Shown here in pieces: positions 3,045 to 46,364 of a DNA stretch of 64,000 nt. The DNA lies in contig CAMFJL010000006.1 of the NCBI GenBank assembly GCA_945957175.1, forward strand, positions 30,137 to 94,136, read 5' to 3'. Origin of the DNA: an uncultured Legionellales bacterium. GTDB taxonomy: Bacteria > Pseudomonadota > Gammaproteobacteria > UBA1113. The notes beneath the pieces are model-generated. The model worked only from the letters and a program-made list of their open reading frames with translations. It was not told where the DNA came from and searched no databases. Position 1 is the stretch's first letter; every line of letters begins with the position of its first letter. The position numbers and the translations under genes were made by a program.

Positions 3045-3935
3045 ATGAGTTGGTTACGTAAGTTATTACCACAAAGTATGCGCACCAGTGGTGAGCGCAA
3101 GAAAGCGGTGCCAGAAGGTGTATGGATTAAGTGCCCCGAGTGCGCTGAAGCTTTGTATTCTCCCGTGCTGGAGCGTAATCTACAAGTTTGTCCACAATGT
3201 AATCATCACTTTCGTATTAATGCTAGACAGCGATTACTCGCTTTGTTTGACGATGATAAACTGACAGAAATCGCCGCAGATATTGCGCCTGTTGATTACT
3301 TAAAATTTAAAGATACCAAAAAATACAAAGACCGATTAGTACACATGCAAAAAGCCACCGGTGAGAAAGATGCACTTGTGGTTATGCAAGGTCAAATTCA
3401 AGGTATAAAGGCGATCGCAGCAGCGTTTGAATACGCTTTTATTGGCGGCTCCATGGGTGCTGTCGTTGGTGAAAAGTTTGTGCAAGGCGTGGAAGCTGCA
3501 ATCAAACATAAACAGCCATTTGTATGTATTTCTGCAAGCGGCGGCGCGCGTATGCAAGAAGCCTTATTATCGTTATTACAAATGGCGAAGACTAGTGCAG
3601 CGTTGCGTAAGTTGTCAGATGCCGGATTACCTTATATTTCTGTGTTAACCGATCCGACCATGGGTGGGGTATCTGCAAGTCTTGCTATGTTAGGCGATGT
3701 GATTATTGCTGAGCCTAAAGCCTTGATTGGCTTTGCAGGACCACGTGTGATTGAACAAACCGTGCGTGAAATACTACCTGAAGGTTTTCAAAGCAGTGAA
3801 TTCCTACTAACACATGGCGCGATCGATATGATAGTCGATAGGCGCGAGCTTAGTGCAACGATTGGACGTATATTGGCGAAGTTATTAAATATGGCGCCGC
3901 ATGTTGCGTTACCGACAGATTATGCAACAACATAA
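3045..3935 (+). CDS. accD: acetyl-CoA carboxylase carboxyltransferase beta subunit
   Basis: N-terminal Cys4 zinc ribbon (CPEC…CPQC) followed by a carboxyltransferase domain; 296 aa. Confidence 0.85.
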
Positions 3936-4132: not shown

Positions 4133-4660
4133 ATGGATTCTCAACCGGTAGTGACGCAAGTGACCCACCTTAATTGGGTTGACTATAGTATCCTTGTTTT
4201 TATTGCGTTGTCAGTTTTTATCAGTTTGATTCGCGGATTTACGCGTGAAGTGATATCACTTATCACGTGGATTGCTGCTTTTTTACTGGCATTTAATTTT
4301 GCAAATGCAGTGGCCACTTATTTTGATGGTCGAGTTAACTCAGCAACGGTTCGTTTTGCCTTAGGATTTGGTATCATTTTTCTTATTACGCTGATACTTG
4401 GTGCCATTGTTAATTATTTGATTGCAACCTTAGTCGACAAAACAGGCCTATCGGGCACCGATAGAGTATTAGGCATTGGCTTGGGTGCAGCTAGGGGCGT
4501 GCTCATTGTTTCTATGCTTATTGTGGTTGCCGGATTTACCAGTATTCCCAAAGAGCCTGCCTGGAGCGATTCTATGCTGTTGCCGCATTTTCAGTTATGT
4601 GCCAACTGGCTCAAGCAGTTTGTGCCAACGGCGCTTAACTATGTCCAAGGTGATGGTTAG
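4133..4660 (+). CDS. cvpA: colicin V production membrane protein CvpA
   Basis: Multi-TM protein of about 175 aa. GGAGG sits 7 nt upstream of the ATG at 4133; the ORF-track start at 4043 has no RBS. accD-cvpA neighbourhood as in enterics. Confidence 0.65.
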   Translation: MDSQPVVTQVTHLNWVDYSILVFIALSVFISLIRGFTREVISLITWIAAFLLAFNFANAVATYFDGRVNSATVRFALGFGIIFLITLILGAIVNYLIATLVDKTGLSGTDRVLGIGLGAARGVLIVSMLIVVAGFTSIPKEPAWSDSMLLPHFQLCANWLKQFVPTALNYVQGDG

Positions 4661-8487: not shown

Positions 8488-9263
8488 CGCAAGTGCAACG
8501 TTTAGGCCGAGGTGGTATCCGCAAATTGTTGATAGTTGGTGATGCAGGTATTGTTCTTGTTCAGACGCTCTTTCGTTTTCCTAAACTTGCCAAAAGCTTT
8601 CCTTTACTGCTCAAGCAATTATATGCCATCGGGGTTTTTTCTCTACCTATCATCATTGTCTCTGGATTATTTATCGGCATGGTTGTTGCTTTGCAAGGCT
8701 ATAATGTTTTAGTAAAATTCAGTGCGTCTGCAGAGTTAGGCCAATTAGTAGCGTTATCCGTTGTGCGAGAGCTTGGGCCTGTTGTTACCGCCTTGTTGTT
8801 TGCCGGCCGTGCGTGTTCTGCGATGACTGCGGAAATCAGTTTGATGAAAACCACAGAGCAATTGGCAAGCATGGAAATGATGGGCGTTGATCCCCTTTGG
8901 TATGTGATAAGTCCAAGATTTTGGGCGGGCTTTATCAGTCTACCTTTGTTAACCCTTATTTTTTCAACAGTTGCTATTTTTGGTGGTTATGCCATGGGGG
9001 TGCACTGGTTGGGGGTCGATAATGGCGGCTTTTGGAATAATATGCAAGGTGCTGTCGATTTTCGTCTCGATATTGTTAATGGGATTATTAAAAGTCTCGT
9101 TTTTGCTTTTATTGTGACTTGGATAGCCGTTTATCAAGGTATTCGCAGCGTTCCTACCGCGGAAGGTATAGGATTGGCAACGACGCGTACGGTGGTATGG
9201 GCGTCCCTTGCGGTATTGGGTTTTGATTTTGTATTGACAGCACTCATGATGGGAGGGTGGTAA
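8481..9263 (+). CDS. mlaE: phospholipid ABC transporter permease MlaE
   Basis: 260-aa multi-TM permease that overlaps mlaF by 7 nt. Confidence 0.8.
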
Positions 9264-9787: not shown

Positions 9788-9802
9788 ATTTAATACAAGG
9801 AG

Positions 9803-10426
9803 ATGGATATGCGTCGATTACAAAAATTAGGTTTATGGATGGCGATGTGCCTGTGTTTTAGTATGACTGCCATGGCTGCAGGTGATCCAGTTGCGATGTT
9901 ACAACAGACATCAAATCAAATGATTTCAGCGCTTAAGCAAAATAAAGCGACGATTAAAACCAATCCTAAGTTGGTTGAAAGCTTAGCAAGGCAAATTATT
10001 TTACCGCATGTTGATACCAGTGCAATGTCACAATTAGCGCTTGGACGAACCGCGTGGCAGAATGCAACAAGTAGTCAACGTCAGGCATTTGTCAGCCAAT
10101 TCACGACAATGATGATTCGTACGTATTCATCGGCATTGGCAGCTTATAGCAATCAAAGTGTAACATTTTTACCGGTTCGTGGTGGTACGGATAATTTAAC
10201 TCGGGTTCAAGTGAACAGCCAGATTATCCAGCCAGGTGGTCCAGCCATTCCCGTGAGTTATCGTTTGCTTAATCGTAGTGGTAGCTGGAAAGTCTATGAC
10301 ATGAGTGTGGATGGGATAAGTTTAGTTCAAAGCTTTCGGGCGCAGTTTGCAAATCAAATTAACCAAAGCGGTATGGATGGATTGCTTTCTGTGATGGCTA
10401 AACATAATAACCAGCCACTAAGCTAA
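9803..10426 (+). CDS. mlaC: periplasmic phospholipid-binding protein MlaC (Ttg2D family)
   Basis: Signal peptide, about 200 aa, and its position in the mla operon. Confidence 0.7.
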   Translation: MDMRRLQKLGLWMAMCLCFSMTAMAAGDPVAMLQQTSNQMISALKQNKATIKTNPKLVESLARQIILPHVDTSAMSQLALGRTAWQNATSSQRQAFVSQFTTMMIRTYSSALAAYSNQSVTFLPVRGGTDNLTRVQVNSQIIQPGGPAIPVSYRLLNRSGSWKVYDMSVDGISLVQSFRAQFANQINQSGMDGLLSVMAKHNNQPLS

Positions 10427-26387: not shown

Positions 26388-26764
26388 AATCGAATGCCTT
26401 CACGACCGCCAATAAGTGCTTTATCTGCCAGTTCGTCCAAAGGTAAATCGGCATAATTGACTAACTTAAATAACATCGGCAAATTGACGCCGCTGATAAG
26501 ACGAAGCTTGTCATATGATTTAAGGGTAAGTGCCATATTACAAGGGGTTGCACCAAATACATCTGTCAAAATAAGGACACCGTCTTGGTTTGCGAGCGCG
26601 TCTAGTTTTTGTTGTAATTGTGCGTGCATTTGCTCAGGTGTCTGCTGGTAACTGACGGCGATCAGTTGCCAATGCGCGGGCAATTGTCCGAATGTGGTTT
26701 GCACAACTTGCGTCAGCGCTTGTCCCACATCTGTGTGGGTGACGAGTAAAACATGAACAGTCAT
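26381..26764 (-). CDS. PTS EIIA component, mannose/fructose family
   Basis: 127 aa with N-terminal VLLVTHTDVG of the EIIA-Man fold. It lies between rapZ and ptsO, as in beta and some gamma proteobacteria. Confidence 0.55.
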   Translation of the reverse strand: MTVHVLLVTHTDVGQALTQVVQTTFGQLPAHWQLIAVSYQQTPEQMHAQLQQKLDALANQDGVLILTDVFGATPCNMALTLKSYDKLRLISGVNLPMLFKLVNYADLPLDELADKALIGGREGIRLC

Positions 26765-27603
26765 TATAGCTCTCGGTGACGTACCTGTAGTTGAGGATAG
26801 TCAATGCGTAACTGTTTTGCCAGGGCTTCGGCTATAAAAACTGAACGATGTTGACCCCCAGTGCAGCCGATGGCTACCGTTAAATAATTACGATGGCTAT
26901 GAATAAATTCCGGGATCCAGTGTTTTAAGAACTTCGTGATGTCTTGTAACATGGTTTTGGTTTCGGGCTTTGTTTCTAAAAATGCCATCACTGGGGCGTC
27001 TAGGCCTGTATGTCCGCGCAATGCGGTTTGCCAATAGGGATTAGCAAGACATCGCACGTCGAATACGAAATCACTATCTGCAGGTACACCAAATTTAAAG
27101 CCAAAGGATTCAATGAGCAAAGATAAACCTTGATTTTTAGCGCCAACACGCGTGGTAATAGCTTGACGTAATTCGTGAACAGAATAATGGGTTGTGTCAA
27201 TACGAACGTCAGCAAGCTCTGCAATAGGTGCAAGCATTCGCTGCTCTTCGCGGATAGCTTCAGATAATGACAAGCTGGGACTTGTGAGTGGATGCTTACG
27301 TCGGGTTTCACTAAAGCGTTTCATGAGAGTTGCATCATCGGCGTCAAGATAAACGAGTTCACAACTGGTGCTTTGTTCTTTGAATTGTGTCAGTAGGGGA
27401 TAGAAGCTGGCTAATTCTTTGGGAAGATTTCGTGCATCGATGCCCAAAGCAAGCGATTCGTGGTGATCACCCATGTGGCTGATAAGCTCTGGGAGTAAAC
27501 TCACCGGTAGATTATCGAGGCAATAAAAACCAGCGTCTTCTAAGGCATGAAGACAGATGGATTTACCAGAGCCAGAGCGACCACTGATGATGACGATTCT
27601 CAC
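26764..27603 (-). CDS. rapZ: RNase adapter protein RapZ (YhbJ)
   Basis: 279 aa with Walker A GRSGSGKS and N-terminus MRIVIISG. The start codon is apparently GTG at 27603. Confidence 0.8.
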   Translation of the reverse strand: MRIVIISGRSGSGKSICLHALEDAGFYCLDNLPVSLLPELISHMGDHHESLALGIDARNLPKELASFYPLLTQFKEQSTSCELVYLDADDATLMKRFSETRRKHPLTSPSLSLSEAIREEQRMLAPIAELADVRIDTTHYSVHELRQAITTRVGAKNQGLSLLIESFGFKFGVPADSDFVFDVRCLANPYWQTALRGHTGLDAPVMAFLETKPETKTMLQDITKFLKHWIPEFIHSHRNYLTVAIGCTGGQHRSVFIAEALAKQLRIDYPQLQVRHREL

Positions 27604-27700
27604 GGTGTGTGCCTCATTGGGGGAGATAGAGTCATTATATCACGAGATGATCTCACGATGTTAACCGTAGGGCACGGTCATAACGATACTAAATTGTAGC

Positions 27701-27718
27701 GGCACGGCGTGCCGTGCC
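27701..27718. repeat. GC-rich palindromic element GGCACGGCGTGCCGTGCC (copy 1); an upstream half-copy GTAGGGCACGG lies at 27667-27677
   Basis: A perfect 8+2+8 palindrome 13 nt downstream of the hprK stop, in the hprK-rapZ spacer. The identical 18-mer recurs at 31157-31174. Confidence 0.6.
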
Positions 27719-27730
27719 CCAAAAGGTATG

Positions 27731-28276
27731 TTAAGGATTCAGCAGTTGTTCTTGTCTGGCAATAAATTCATCGGTAGCAAGGTAACCGTGTTGTTTAAGT
27801 ACTTGATTGCGCACAGCTGTTTCAATGAGCACAGCAATGTTACGACCGGGCGCGAGCGGTATAGTGACTTCGGGCACTTCAACATCCAAAATGCTTTGTT
27901 GCCGGTACATCCCTTGAAGCCGGTCCATCTGCGCAAGTTCTTCAGTGGAAAATAGCGCGACGTGCACAATGAGTTGTAAGCGTTTTTCTTGCTTGATAGC
28001 GTTATCGCCGTACATAACGCGAATATTTAAAATACCGAGACCGCGCACTTCTAAAAAATCCTGTAACAGTGGAGGACAACTGCCAATCAAGGTTTCTTTG
28101 TCGATTTGTTTAAAAGTAACCGCATCATCGGCTATCAGGCGATGTCCTCGATTAATGAGACCTAGTGCCAGCTCACTTTTACCGATGCCGCTGGCACCGG
28201 TTAACAAGACGCCAAGGCCCAATACATCGAGAAATACACCATGGAGTGTGGCTGTGTCATCTAAGCTGGTAGGCAT
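27731..28276 (-). CDS. hprK: HPr kinase/phosphorylase, kinase-domain-only short form
   Basis: 181 aa containing the P-loop GASGIGKSE and the HprK C-terminal domain. The upstream space is occupied by ptsN (16-nt overlap), so no N-terminal domain is possible. Confidence 0.65.
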   Translation of the reverse strand: MPTSLDDTATLHGVFLDVLGLGVLLTGASGIGKSELALGLINRGHRLIADDAVTFKQIDKETLIGSCPPLLQDFLEVRGLGILNIRVMYGDNAIKQEKRLQLIVHVALFSTEELAQMDRLQGMYRQQSILDVEVPEVTIPLAPGRNIAVLIETAVRNQVLKQHGYLATDEFIARQEQLLNP

Positions 28277-30468: not shown

Positions 30469-31026
30469 ATGAATATTCCTAATATGTTAACGTTAGCACG
30501 TATTGTATTAATTCCTTTGTTTGTCGTGTTATTTTATCTACCATGGCATTTTACGCAAATGCTAACAACCATCATTTTTATCATTGCGGCGCTTACGGAT
30601 TGGTTAGATGGTTATCTTGCTAGAAGCCTTTCGCAAACCTCAAGATTGGGTGCTTTTTTAGATCCCGTTGCGGATAAATTGATTGTTGTGACTGCATTGA
30701 TTTTGCTAGTAGGTGCGAATCAGTTCCCTTATATTGCGGTGCCTGCGGCAGTGATTGCTGGTCGAGAGATAGCGATATCCGCTTTGCGTGAATGGATGGC
30801 AGAGCTTGGTAAGCGCACAAGTATTGCAGTGTCCATTCTCGGTAAAAGCAAGACAGTTTTACAGATGTTGGCGATCACTTTGTTATTGTTGGGGCGTAGC
30901 GAAAGCATACCCAATTATCATACCTTAGCAATGGTGGGCTATGGCCTGCTTTATGCGGCAGCAGTGATGACCTTGTGGTCCATGGTTATCTACCTTAAAA
31001 CCGCATGGCCGGAATTCCAAAAATAG
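30469..31026 (+). CDS. pgsA: CDP-diacylglycerol--glycerol-3-phosphate 3-phosphatidyltransferase
   Basis: MNIPNMLTLARIVLIPLFV aligns with the E. coli PgsA N-terminus. CDP-alcohol PTase motif D…G…AR…G…D; 185 aa. Confidence 0.8.
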   Translation: MNIPNMLTLARIVLIPLFVVLFYLPWHFTQMLTTIIFIIAALTDWLDGYLARSLSQTSRLGAFLDPVADKLIVVTALILLVGANQFPYIAVPAAVIAGREIAISALREWMAELGKRTSIAVSILGKSKTVLQMLAITLLLLGRSESIPNYHTLAMVGYGLLYAAAVMTLWSMVIYLKTAWPEFQK

Positions 31027-31124
31027 AGGTCCGGTGGTAACGATATGGCCGGAATTCCAAAAATAGAGGTCCGGTGGTAACGATATGGCCGGAATTCCAA
31101 AAATAGAGGTCCGGTGGTAACGAT
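31005..31124 (+). repeat. perfect 3x40-bp tandem direct repeat (unit ATGGCCGGAATTCCAAAAATAGAGGTCCGGTGGTAACGAT)
   Basis: The three units at 31005-31044, 31045-31084 and 31085-31124 are identical. Copy 1 contains the last 22 nt of pgsA (…W P E F Q K stop) plus 18 nt of 3'UTR. Confidence 0.9.
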
Positions 31125-31150
31125 ATTGACTGTAGAGACATAATGCTAAC

Positions 31151-31180
31151 TGTAAGGGCACGGCGTGCCGTGCCCTTACA
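31151..31180. repeat. GC-rich palindromic element (copy 2), extended to a 14+2+14 near-perfect palindrome TGTAAGGGCACGGC-GT-GCCGTGCCCTTACA
   Basis: Contains the same GGCACGGCGTGCCGTGCC core as 27701-27718. It lies between the 40-bp repeat array and the tRNA promoter. Confidence 0.6.
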
Positions 31181-31224
31181 AAAGCGTGCCGCACCTCTGC
31201 AAATAACAAATTCTTAAATAATAC

Positions 31225-31252
31225 TTGACAGCAGATCGCATTTCGCTAAAAT
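31225..31252 (+). promoter_or_regulatory. strong sigma70-like promoter of the tRNA cluster (TTGACA-16-TAAAAT)
   Basis: TTGACA at 31225-31230 and TAAAAT at 31247-31252. tRNA-Gly begins 13 nt downstream of the -10. Confidence 0.55.
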
Positions 31253-34914: not shown

Positions 34915-36195
34915 ATGGCACGACGCGATTTGAGGTCTTTATGGATAGCTTTGGCCACTGCGGGCTTGCTAGCCAGTGCAACAGCATCTTATGCGGATAC
35001 CACATTAGATGCTATGAATTCATTGGCACCTGCACCTGCTGCGCAGCAGGTGACGGGCAATCGTGCGATTATCATTCCGTCGGCACCGGAGGTGACAGCT
35101 AAGTCCTTTATTTTGATGGATGCAGATAGTGGTGTTGTCATCGCCTCGAATAATCCTGATTTGCGTTTACCGCCTGCCAGTTTGACGAAACTTATGACTT
35201 TATATGTGGTTTTTGGCGCTTTAAAAAATGGCCAAGTTCATTTAACAGATCAGGTGCCTATTAGCGAGAAAGCGTGGCGTACCGGCGGTTCTAAGATGTT
35301 TGTGAAGGTTGGCGATACGGTGCCATTCAATGACTTACTACAAGGCGTTATTGTTGCTTCAGGTAATGATTCTGCAATTGCACTGGCAGAATATGTAGCC
35401 GGCAGTGAAGATGCTTTTGTGAGCCTCATGAATCAAGAAGCCAAGAGTTTAGGGCTTAAAAATAGTCATTTTTCTGATTGCAATGGTTTGCCGGCACCCG
35501 ATCATTATTCATCTGCACACGATTTTGCTATATTAGCAAACCATATTATTCATGATTATCCCCAATACTATCCAATGTTTTCAGAAAAAGACTTTGTTTA
35601 CAATAATATTAAACAGCCTAATCGTAACCGTTTGTTGTGGCGTTATCAGTATGCCGATGGTCTTAAAACCGGTCATACGGATGCAGCGGGCTATTGTTTA
35701 GTGGCATCAGCTAAACAAAACGGCATGCGTCTTATTAGCGTAGTGATGGGTGAACCAACAGAGCCGGCACGCGTCAATGATAGTATTGCCTTGTTTACTT
35801 ATGGTTATCGCTTTTATAAGACCTATCAACTTTATGGCGCTAATCAAGCGATGACGCAAGCACGCGTTTGGCAGGGCCAGGATGCAAATGTATCCATTGG
35901 TCTTACAAAACCCTTATTTGTGACGGTACCTATCGGTCAATATAATAAGCTTTCCGCAGCTGCAAACATACAGCAACCTATTTTTGCACCGATTGCCCAA
36001 GGTCAAGTGTTAGGCCAAGTGGATGTCACTCTTGATGGTAAACCTTTGTTAATACAACCGCTAGTTGCATTGAGTGCTGATCCCAAAGGTAATCTGTGGC
36101 GACGCCTAGCAGACAAAGTGAGTTTATCCTTACACAATATGTTAAAGAAAAAAGAAACCGCGAATACGAAGGTGACCAGCAGTAATAATGCCTAA
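34915..36195 (+). CDS. dacC: D-alanyl-D-alanine carboxypeptidase (PBP5/6 family)
   Basis: Signal peptide, then the SLTK (SxxK), SGN and KTG motifs and a PBP5 C-terminal domain. It starts 2 nt after the ftsZ stop. Confidence 0.75.
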   Translation: MARRDLRSLWIALATAGLLASATASYADTTLDAMNSLAPAPAAQQVTGNRAIIIPSAPEVTAKSFILMDADSGVVIASNNPDLRLPPASLTKLMTLYVVFGALKNGQVHLTDQVPISEKAWRTGGSKMFVKVGDTVPFNDLLQGVIVASGNDSAIALAEYVAGSEDAFVSLMNQEAKSLGLKNSHFSDCNGLPAPDHYSSAHDFAILANHIIHDYPQYYPMFSEKDFVYNNIKQPNRNRLLWRYQYADGLKTGHTDAAGYCLVASAKQNGMRLISVVMGEPTEPARVNDSIALFTYGYRFYKTYQLYGANQAMTQARVWQGQDANVSIGLTKPLFVTVPIGQYNKLSAAANIQQPIFAPIAQGQVLGQVDVTLDGKPLLIQPLVALSADPKGNLWRRLADKVSLSLHNMLKKKETANTKVTSSNNA

Positions 36196-46151: not shown

Positions 46152-46364
46152 TGTATTGAAACCTTGTTATTTGACTACAATTGTGATATAACGTCGCGAC
46201 GCTCTATGTTCCAAGGGAACGTAGAGTGAAGTATAGACGAAAACACACACTTATGGTTAACACTATTTTGGGTGCCTAAGGTCTTTCCCTGTTTAGCATA
46301 AGCAAGGGATTACTTAGGTGAAATCGTGTTGTAAGTGGAGGCTTAACCCAAGAGGAGTAGATAC

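Follow-up and report, generated by a model that had tools for sequence, protein, structure and literature searches.

Two GC-rich hairpins at transcription-unit boundaries of an uncultured gammaproteobacterium are probable REPs of a RayT-associated type

The window, meaning the whole 64,000-nucleotide stretch of DNA analyzed here, comes from an uncultured bacterium of 44% GC whose nearest named relatives are Legionellales MAGs, with RapZ identities of 56–58%. The GC skew was above 0 in every 4-kb bin across positions 1–64000, and most genes lie on the plus strand. Site 1 is on the plus strand, opposite a minus-strand cluster of hpf, ptsN, hprK, rapZ, an EIIA-Man-family PTS gene, and an HPr-family gene, and lies between the hprK stop codon and a conserved -10-like element of rapZ. 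Site 2 follows aroC-pgsA and a tandem repeat and precedes the promoter of tRNA-Gly. Each site carries one copy of a GC-rich hairpin (copy 1 and copy 2), and the neighboring genes and signals are as follows.

26764..27603, minus strand: rapZ, downstream of copy 1 (PF03668 and PF22740)
27634..27642, minus strand: extended -10-like element TGATATAAT upstream of rapZ (sequence reading and alignment)
27731..28276, minus strand: hprK, HPr-kinase C-terminal domain only, 181 aa, upstream gene of copy 1 (PF07475, E = 9e-65)
30469..31026, plus strand: pgsA, upstream gene of copy 2 (gene context)
31005..31126, plus strand: three perfect 40-bp tandem repeats (repeat family D1; the listed copies are 42 nt long and overlap by 2)
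31225..31252, plus strand: strong promoter-like site TTGACA-16-TAAAAT of the tRNA-Gly/Cys/Leu operon (scan, 11/12 matches)

The preliminary description named the gene upstream of site 1 hprK, and its product is indeed HPr kinase, of which the gene encodes the C-terminal domain only; in all close relatives, too, HPr kinase consists of the C-terminal catalytic domain alone (181–186 aa). The hprK stop codon, TAA, occupies positions 27731–27733, about 10–12 nt from copy 1. The hairpin had been placed 13 nt downstream of this stop; the downstream position holds, and the distance between TAA and the 18-nt core is 12 nt. The element TGATATAAT was not called by the -35/-10 scan. At site 2, the TTGACA-16-TAAAAT site lies 45 nt downstream of copy 2 and is conserved in the relative L210. 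Each 40-bp unit of the tandem repeat comprises the last 22 nt of pgsA, including its TAG stop codon, and a further 18 nt (aggtccggtggtaacgat), with 40 nt from start to start. Several metagenome assemblies (L214–L217) end within approximately 110 nt of the pgsA stop, which suggests a variable number of repeat copies or breaks in assembly. In the relative with 90% PgsA identity, pgsA ends in TAA and lacks the 40-bp repeat. In an Rfam search of the window, only tRNAs and a t44 RNA (46226–46347, plus strand; 51.6 bits versus a gathering score of 44) reached the gathering score, and nothing credible was found on the two hairpins even at E values up to 10.

The central 18-mer of the hairpins, GGCACGGCGTGCCGTGCC, occurs in identical form at 27701–27718 (site 1) and 31157–31174 (site 2), as had been reported. 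Only 0.03 matches with up to three mismatches are expected by chance in dinucleotide-preserving shuffles of the window, and the observed number was reached in 0 of 100 shuffles. The 18-mer had been described as a perfect palindrome; it differs from its own reverse complement at two positions, having 8-bp arms around a non-self-complementary GT. A perfect-hairpin scan of the 64 kb found GC-rich hairpins with a stem of at least 8 bp at sites 1 and 2 only, and returned the 14-bp-arm palindrome noted previously at site 2. The hairpins and an incomplete copy are arranged as follows.

27667..27677, plus strand: truncated REP, foot and left arm only, GTAGGGCACGG (same orientation as copy 1)
27696..27720, plus strand: REP copy 1, foot GTAG(C) and arms GGCACGGC/GCCGTGCC (8 bp) around GT, followed by CC (sequence, hairpin scan, RNA fold)
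31151..31180, plus strand: REP copy 2, double-foot TGTAAG-GGCACGGC-GT-GCCGTGCC-CTTACA with 14-bp arms (sequence, hairpin scan, RNA fold)

The two sites share a 28-nt stretch at 89% identity with the GT center on the same strand (repeat family D20), and their arms are identical at 18 of 18 positions. RNA folding gave 7 bp with a 4-nt loop for site 1 (-15.6 kcal/mol, z = -3.1) and 13 bp with a 4-nt loop for site 2 (-23.6 kcal/mol, z = -6.6). The left flank at site 1 reads TGTAGC, not TGTAGG as given previously, and because the base next to the foot is C, the stem of copy 1 is one pair shorter than the consensus described below. Both feet of site 2 are degenerate in a matching way (GTAA/TTAC), a compensatory change that preserves the pairing. 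The "half-copy" noted upstream of site 1 is present; it proved to consist of a foot and left arm and lies 18 nt ahead of the copy 1 foot (GTAGC, 27696–27700). The GTAG of the feet lies at 27696–27699 in copy 1 and at 27667–27670 in the truncated copy. The foot and GT center of both full copies are on the plus strand and the genes flanking the two sites are oppositely directed, site 1 being on the strand opposite to the hpf-ptsN-hprK-rapZ cluster. The shared orientation would fit insertion linked to the replication strand, with n = 2. A perfect palindrome of 20 bp, CACCTGCTGCGCAGCAGGTG, was found at 35033–35052 within ORF 34915–36195 and has no relation to the REP.

In total, the organism has two full copies and one truncated copy in approximately 84 kb, that is, the window and approximately 10 kb on each side, the added flanks holding no further copy. 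Both sites were identical in at least six independent metagenome assemblies of the same organism (ENA, Logan). A JGI metagenome scan for the window-specific subfamily yielded no further copy and one unrelated contig of 57.5% GC.

Both spacers were compared with those of relatives. Relatives with 89, 84, 80, and 73% RapZ identity keep the order hpf-ptsN-hprK-rapZ, and their hprK-rapZ spacers are 55, 19, 79, and 25 nt long, respectively, versus 127 nt in the window. The REP is absent from this spacer in relatives L203, L204, L201, and L202, and the 89% relative keeps TGATATAAT while lacking the REP. Likewise, L210 (90% PgsA identity) lacks copy 2; its TTGACA promoter hexamer begins 3 nt past the pgsA stop, and the window has approximately 195 extra nucleotides. 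Alignment placed the window-specific DNA at the following approximate positions.

27660..27727, no strand: insert specific to the window, in the spacer that separates the hprK stop from the rapZ promoter region, containing the truncated and the full REP
31011..31205, no strand: insert specific to the window, in the spacer that separates the pgsA stop from the tRNA-Gly promoter, containing the tandem repeat and copy 2

The boundaries of the second insert are ambiguous because the pgsA 3' end is present twice. Since close relatives have neither copy, both are lineage-specific insertions, and since the arms are perfect even though the inserts are missing from relatives diverged by approximately 10% in protein, the copies are either young or conserved. 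At site 1 the insert is flanked by the direct repeat TTAACAT (minus strand; 27658–27664 and 27728–27734), which equals the 3' end of the upstream gene, and at site 2 by a pgsA-tail repeat of approximately 16–19 nt with four mismatches (31013–31026 and about 31207–31221). Judged by sequence, these direct repeats look like target duplications. To our knowledge, such flanking repeats are not expected of Y1 transposition.

To place the hairpins in a wider context, public genomes were scanned with the core GGCACGGCNNGCCGTGCC, taken without flanks, in one genome per species. This gave at least 120 loci, so that all counts are lower bounds and the mix of taxa among the matches listed depends on scan order. 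The listed matches included Acidobacteriota, Chloroflexota, Planctomycetota, Nitrospirota, Omnitrophota, cyanobacteria, and a Methanosarcinales MAG, among others. A GTAGG to the left, a CCTAC to the right, or both (at least 4 of 5 positions on at least one side) accompanied 108 of 131 copies among the matches listed; position -1 was G in 91% of the 262 half-sites from these matches, which held no information content past -5. This flank pattern defines the unit as GTAG-G followed by GGCACGGC-NN-GCCGTGCC, with or without C-CTAC, and the consensus of the listed family is GTAG-GGGCACGGC-NN-GCCGTGCCC-CTAC. The label "ERIC-like" in the preliminary description did not hold, nothing being conserved across genomes past approximately 28 nt in the matches listed.

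All-against-all BLASTP of ORFs within 2.5 kb of 120 listed loci found no recurrent neighbor protein family, indicating that the element is a dispersed solo unit. Listed copies that were flanked by genes on either side and not inside a long ORF lay between tandem (39), convergent (17), or divergent (9) genes by rough gene calls, many of them 1–60 nt from a stop codon. Of the single-footed listed copies between co-directional genes, 25 of 27 had their GTAGG foot 5' of the hairpin and in sense orientation, by crude longest-ORF gene calls. In several listed loci, the TAG of the foot is itself the stop codon of the upstream ORF. The proposal of a REP-like intergenic repeat is borne out by the GTAG foot and GC-rich hairpin, by the dispersal of the listed loci mostly beside gene 3' ends, and by the insertions in the window. 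Readings as a CRISPR repeat, DNA uptake sequence, regulator operator, or sequencing adapter were rejected, the copies being solo, dispersed, in unrelated contexts, and present in both short-read and long-read assemblies. Searches of the literature with the DNA core and with the peptides GTACRAPT, GARHAVPL, and GAKNFSPL as strings returned no paper.

Mobile replicons and viral contigs also carry the element. Footed REPs were found in 65 IMG/VR viral-contig loci (L136–L200), some contigs holding 4–6 copies each (e.g., UViG_3300009502_002133), often approximately 20 nt past a gene of approximately 300 aa common to related contigs. Recurrent protein families at the viral loci were those common to related contigs and were not tied to the element, and the sense-strand foot bias was not seen there (11:14). 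The viral contigs could be a vehicle for spread or could reflect prophages or misbinned host DNA. BLAST with a 30-nt consensus detected a REP with the 3-nt loop AGT on the megaplasmid pn1 of Nostoc sp. UHCC 0926 (L135) and a weak partial match in Nonomuraea gerenzanensis (73% of the query, E = 0.4), and no match among phage records. The pn1 copies, at 9788 and 20002, are inverted, 10.2 kb apart, and have approximately 12 further nt in common to either side. Similar flanks occur in a Chroococcales MAG (L109), and in cyanobacteria the REP may lie within a longer repeat. Clusters of 2–3 copies occur at 4462–4976 of L104 and at 3280–3854 of L100, a Desulfobacterales genome of 31% GC; their flanks are common over approximately 25 nt, on both sides in L104 and only upstream in L100, and these clusters are locally amplified larger units.

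We further examined if the element is linked to transposase genes. A scan of the loci for the HuH signature motif gave one match, in a Dehalococcoidia MAG (L044), where the REP lies inside a Y1_Tnp ORF (PF01797), directly 3' of MPNHVHGIIVIN. The L044 protein has at least 8000 homologues, which bear the JGI name "REP element-mobilizing transposase RayT". Directly after the HuH motif, 93 of the best 120 of these homologues carry RGTACRAPT/GTARRAPT or VGARHAVPL, the peptides encoded by the two open frames of the palindrome, whose third frame holds TAG. The in-frame REP was seen at the DNA level in L044, L205, L206/L207, and L208/L209, and the exact double-foot form GTAGGGGCACGGC-NN-GCCGTGCCCCTAC was found in RayT gene DNA from Thermodesulfobacteriota, Nitrospira, Dehalococcoidia, and a JGI contig. 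Among the amino-acid changes within the embedded hairpin, paired ones (T...R to M...H; G...A to D...V) outnumbered one-sided ones, suggesting that the hairpin itself is maintained in the RayT ORF. The RayT proteins match NF047646, "REP-associated tyrosine transposase", at E values of 1e-15 to 1e-19, below its curated cut-off. A profile built from them matched only 4ER8, E. coli TnpA_REP, in the PDB, and a single-sequence PDB search gave no match.

Of the best 120 of the at least 8000 homologues, 21 (e.g., P0005–P0012) have a different peptide, VGAKNFSPL, at the position of the embedded REP. By back-translation it would fit a second palindrome, GTAGGGGCGAAAAATTTTTCGCCCCTAC, and the proteins that carry it differ in their downstream sequence too, which suggests that enzyme and REP type may co-vary. 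L218 has another GTAGGGGCGCAATTTAT... unit, at about 3130, beside a copy of the GGCACGGC type. In L208, tandem truncated units of foot and left arm (GTAGGGGCACGGCAT...) followed by a full REP occur at 8658–8725 and 10265–10321, one array in a 993-aa N6/N4 methyltransferase ORF and the other in the adjacent RayT ORF. This truncated-then-full layout of L208/L209 is that of site 1 in the window. Paired copies approximately 1 kb apart in L042, L066, and L083 were also considered as possible brackets of a RAYT gene and were rejected, the intervening ORFs not being transposase-like; from their translations we take them to be thiG (L042), rplT with flanking pheS and infC (L066), and pseudopilin-like genes (L083). 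In the window and its flanks (L121–L134, approximately 84 kb), neither a HuH-type ORF with the motif P[DN]HxH nor a RAYT gene was found.

These results support the earlier suggestion of REPs served by a REP-associated tyrosine transposase (RAYT). The REP lies in frame in RayT-type Y1 genes, as described for subclass 2.4 by Quentin et al. (PMC6006769), and the identity of the embedded and free sequences, together with relatives that lack the copies, argues for mobilized REPs. The window copies are most likely non-autonomous REPs that a RAYT spread by acting on hairpinned single-stranded DNA and that now form RNA hairpins at 3' ends. We consider it probable that they are GTAG-tagged REPs of the long/double-foot form belonging to subclass 2.4 (RAYT group 4), of the Y1 HuH type, and that they arose by the following mechanism. 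The unit is a foot of 4–5 nt (GTAG-G) followed by the GC-rich hairpin. As single-stranded DNA the hairpin would fold, a RAYT dimer would recognize foot and hairpin, and cleavage and rejoining of the strand would let copies spread in trans, as extrapolated from other REP/RAYT pairs. Single-stranded REPs are substrates of TnpA_REP in vitro (PMC8266576). A composite of truncated and full REP landed in the window lineage right after the hprK and pgsA stop codons, before the next promoter. The foot of site 1 is on the antisense strand of the transcript, contrary to the 25:2 trend among the listed chromosomal loci, and we count it against the explanation.

After transcription, the hairpins may block exonucleases at 3' ends and may terminate transcription leakily, possibly with the help of Rho. 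As 3' stabilizers and partial terminators, they would keep rapZ separate from hpf-ptsN-hprK and the tRNA operon separate from pgsA. In E. coli, REP hairpins are partial Rho-dependent terminators and also stabilize mRNA (bioRxiv 10.64898/2026.03.23.713779).

Several observations count against mobilized subclass 2.4 REPs, and some of them favor the view that the copies are inert relics of an old REP invasion or of recombined DNA, with the RAYT lost and no selected function of the hairpins. The organism has two copies and no Y1 transposase or RAYT gene in approximately 84 kb; the feet of site 2 fall outside GT[AG]G and the stem base of site 1 is mismatched; and the JGI metagenomes hold no more members of the subfamily. 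However, the copies are identical across assemblies, their arms are perfect, so that the inserts are young or conserved, and the matching change in the site 2 feet keeps them paired. We therefore regard inert relics as possible, if somewhat doubtful.

The direct repeats at the insert flanks and the chance that the unit shared by the two sites may exceed one REP also weigh against mobilized REPs. They raise the question of a larger unit of 70–80 nt, made of truncated REP, spacer, and full REP, which recombination, template switching, or slippage would have duplicated in place of a RAYT. An alignment of the two sites does bring their upstream GTAG and their flanks into register, with a best local flank match of CGGTCATAACGATA versus CGGTGGTAACGATA that was reached in 89 of 5000 shuffles; copies of the upstream-gene 3' end flank both inserts, and the 40-bp triplication at site 2 amounts to local slippage. 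However, the flank similarity beyond the 28 nt is marginal (p about 0.02) and allows two alternative alignments, the similarity of the right flanks was reached in 930 of 5000 shuffles and is not significant, conservation across genomes in the matches listed is confined to the 28-nt unit, and the entry of the REP into the lineage would be left without explanation. We consider duplication of such a unit improbable.

Locally evolved regulatory hairpins, that is, non-canonical terminators or attenuators without a mobile origin, would suit stable structures placed right after stop codons and ahead of promoters, and at site 1 an alternative structure could form between the half-copy and the distal arm. 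As the preliminary description stated, a U-tract is absent at both sites, where the tail of site 1 reads gctacaattt on the minus strand and that of site 2 aaagcgtgcc, and the terminator scan called neither. The same 18–28-nt sequence with the same foot recurs in many phyla and in RayT genes, and it is missing from close relatives whose genes and promoters here are the same, which makes a purely local origin very unlikely. An operator for a dimeric regulator of the PTS-Ntr or tRNA operons, suggested by the palindromic symmetry and the nearby promoters, is scarcely credible, given that the neighbor genes are unrelated in the 120 genome loci listed, that the element lies downstream of genes and not over a -35/-10, and that relatives with the same operons lack it.

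With mobilized REPs as the preferred reading, the finding is real and fairly ordinary, since the copies are of a known REP kind with a widespread transposase family. Two GC-rich hairpins that look odd in a genome of 44% GC are thereby accounted for as young REP insertions. The inserts lengthened the spacers at two transcription-unit boundaries, hprK|rapZ (nitrogen-PTS) and pgsA|tRNA-Gly-Cys-Leu, making these boundaries candidates for altered 3'-end stability and read-through. The most notable aspects are the identity of the REP across phyla and its residence in a transposase ORF, which in general terms have already been published. A REP shared base for base by distant phyla, and lying in the presumed transposase frame, offers a marker for the transfer of RAYT subclass 2.4 and a simple substrate with which the recognition of "perfect-palindrome" REPs could be tested. 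We put forward only tentatively the idea that the 28-nt REP and its RAYT travel as one horizontally mobile unit, with the REP in frame in the ORF and seeding solo REPs. Such co-travel, if true, would explain the identical core in many bacterial phyla, an archaeal MAG, and the 65 viral-contig loci; the embedded copy would seed solo REPs after each transfer, and these would land just past stop codons, their feet in sense orientation. The 25:2 foot bias among the listed chromosomal loci points either to a non-template strand that is exposed and receives the insertion or to RNA-level selection.

Comparison with known systems suggests where the elements belong. Among ERIC/MITE-type repeats a unit of 70–300 bp has conserved terminal inverted repeats, and here nothing is conserved past -5 in the 262 half-sites from the matches listed. 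The hairpins resemble intrinsic terminators in being GC-rich and following directly on a stop codon, whereas they lack a U-tract and are identical in sequence at unrelated loci and in unrelated phyla. Like the subterminal hairpins of IS200/IS605, which Y1 HuH transposases recognize as single-stranded DNA, they have a foot akin to the guide/target tetranucleotide; unlike them, they are single hairpins of 23–28 nt, not left and right ends that enclose a transposase or TnpB ORF. REPINs are similarly thought to be non-autonomous and mobilized by a single-copy RAYT (Bertels and Rainey 2011, PMC3116915). A REPIN consists of two inverted REPs and a spacer, whereas at site 1 of the window a truncated unit and a full one are arranged head to tail, and site 2 is a single double-foot unit.

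GTAG-tagged REPs have a terminal GTAG and a GC-rich hairpin and are mostly situated 3' of ORFs (Di Nocera et al. 2013, PMC3733652). As in this group, which includes E. coli REP/BIME and Stenotrophomonas SMAG, the window elements are short stem-loops within a 20–40 bp palindrome with GTAG at one end, are extragenic after a stop codon between tandem or convergent genes, and include head-to-tail and truncated arrangements (PMC3733652). E. coli REPs differ in having bulged, imperfect stems, hundreds of copies, and BIME clusters, whereas the window has perfect stems at low density. The likeness extends to TnpA_REP subclass 2.4 (RAYT group 4) as presented by Quentin et al. 2018 (PMC6006769), where REPs are long with three G-C pairs at the stem bottom, occur as double-foot forms GT[AG]G...C[TC]AC, lie in frame between HuH and Y, and are spread patchily over phyla. 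The window differs in its partly degenerate feet (GTAG-C; GTAA/TTAC) and in having no REPtron or RayT gene in approximately 84 kb, and its host, an uncultured gammaproteobacterium near Legionellales MAGs, belongs to a group without mention in the text consulted from that paper. In agreement with the same account of subclass 2.4, the public family has a foot at a G-C-based stem, a long/double-foot form, a patchy cross-phylum distribution of its core, and the same REP in frame inside tnpA_REP genes.
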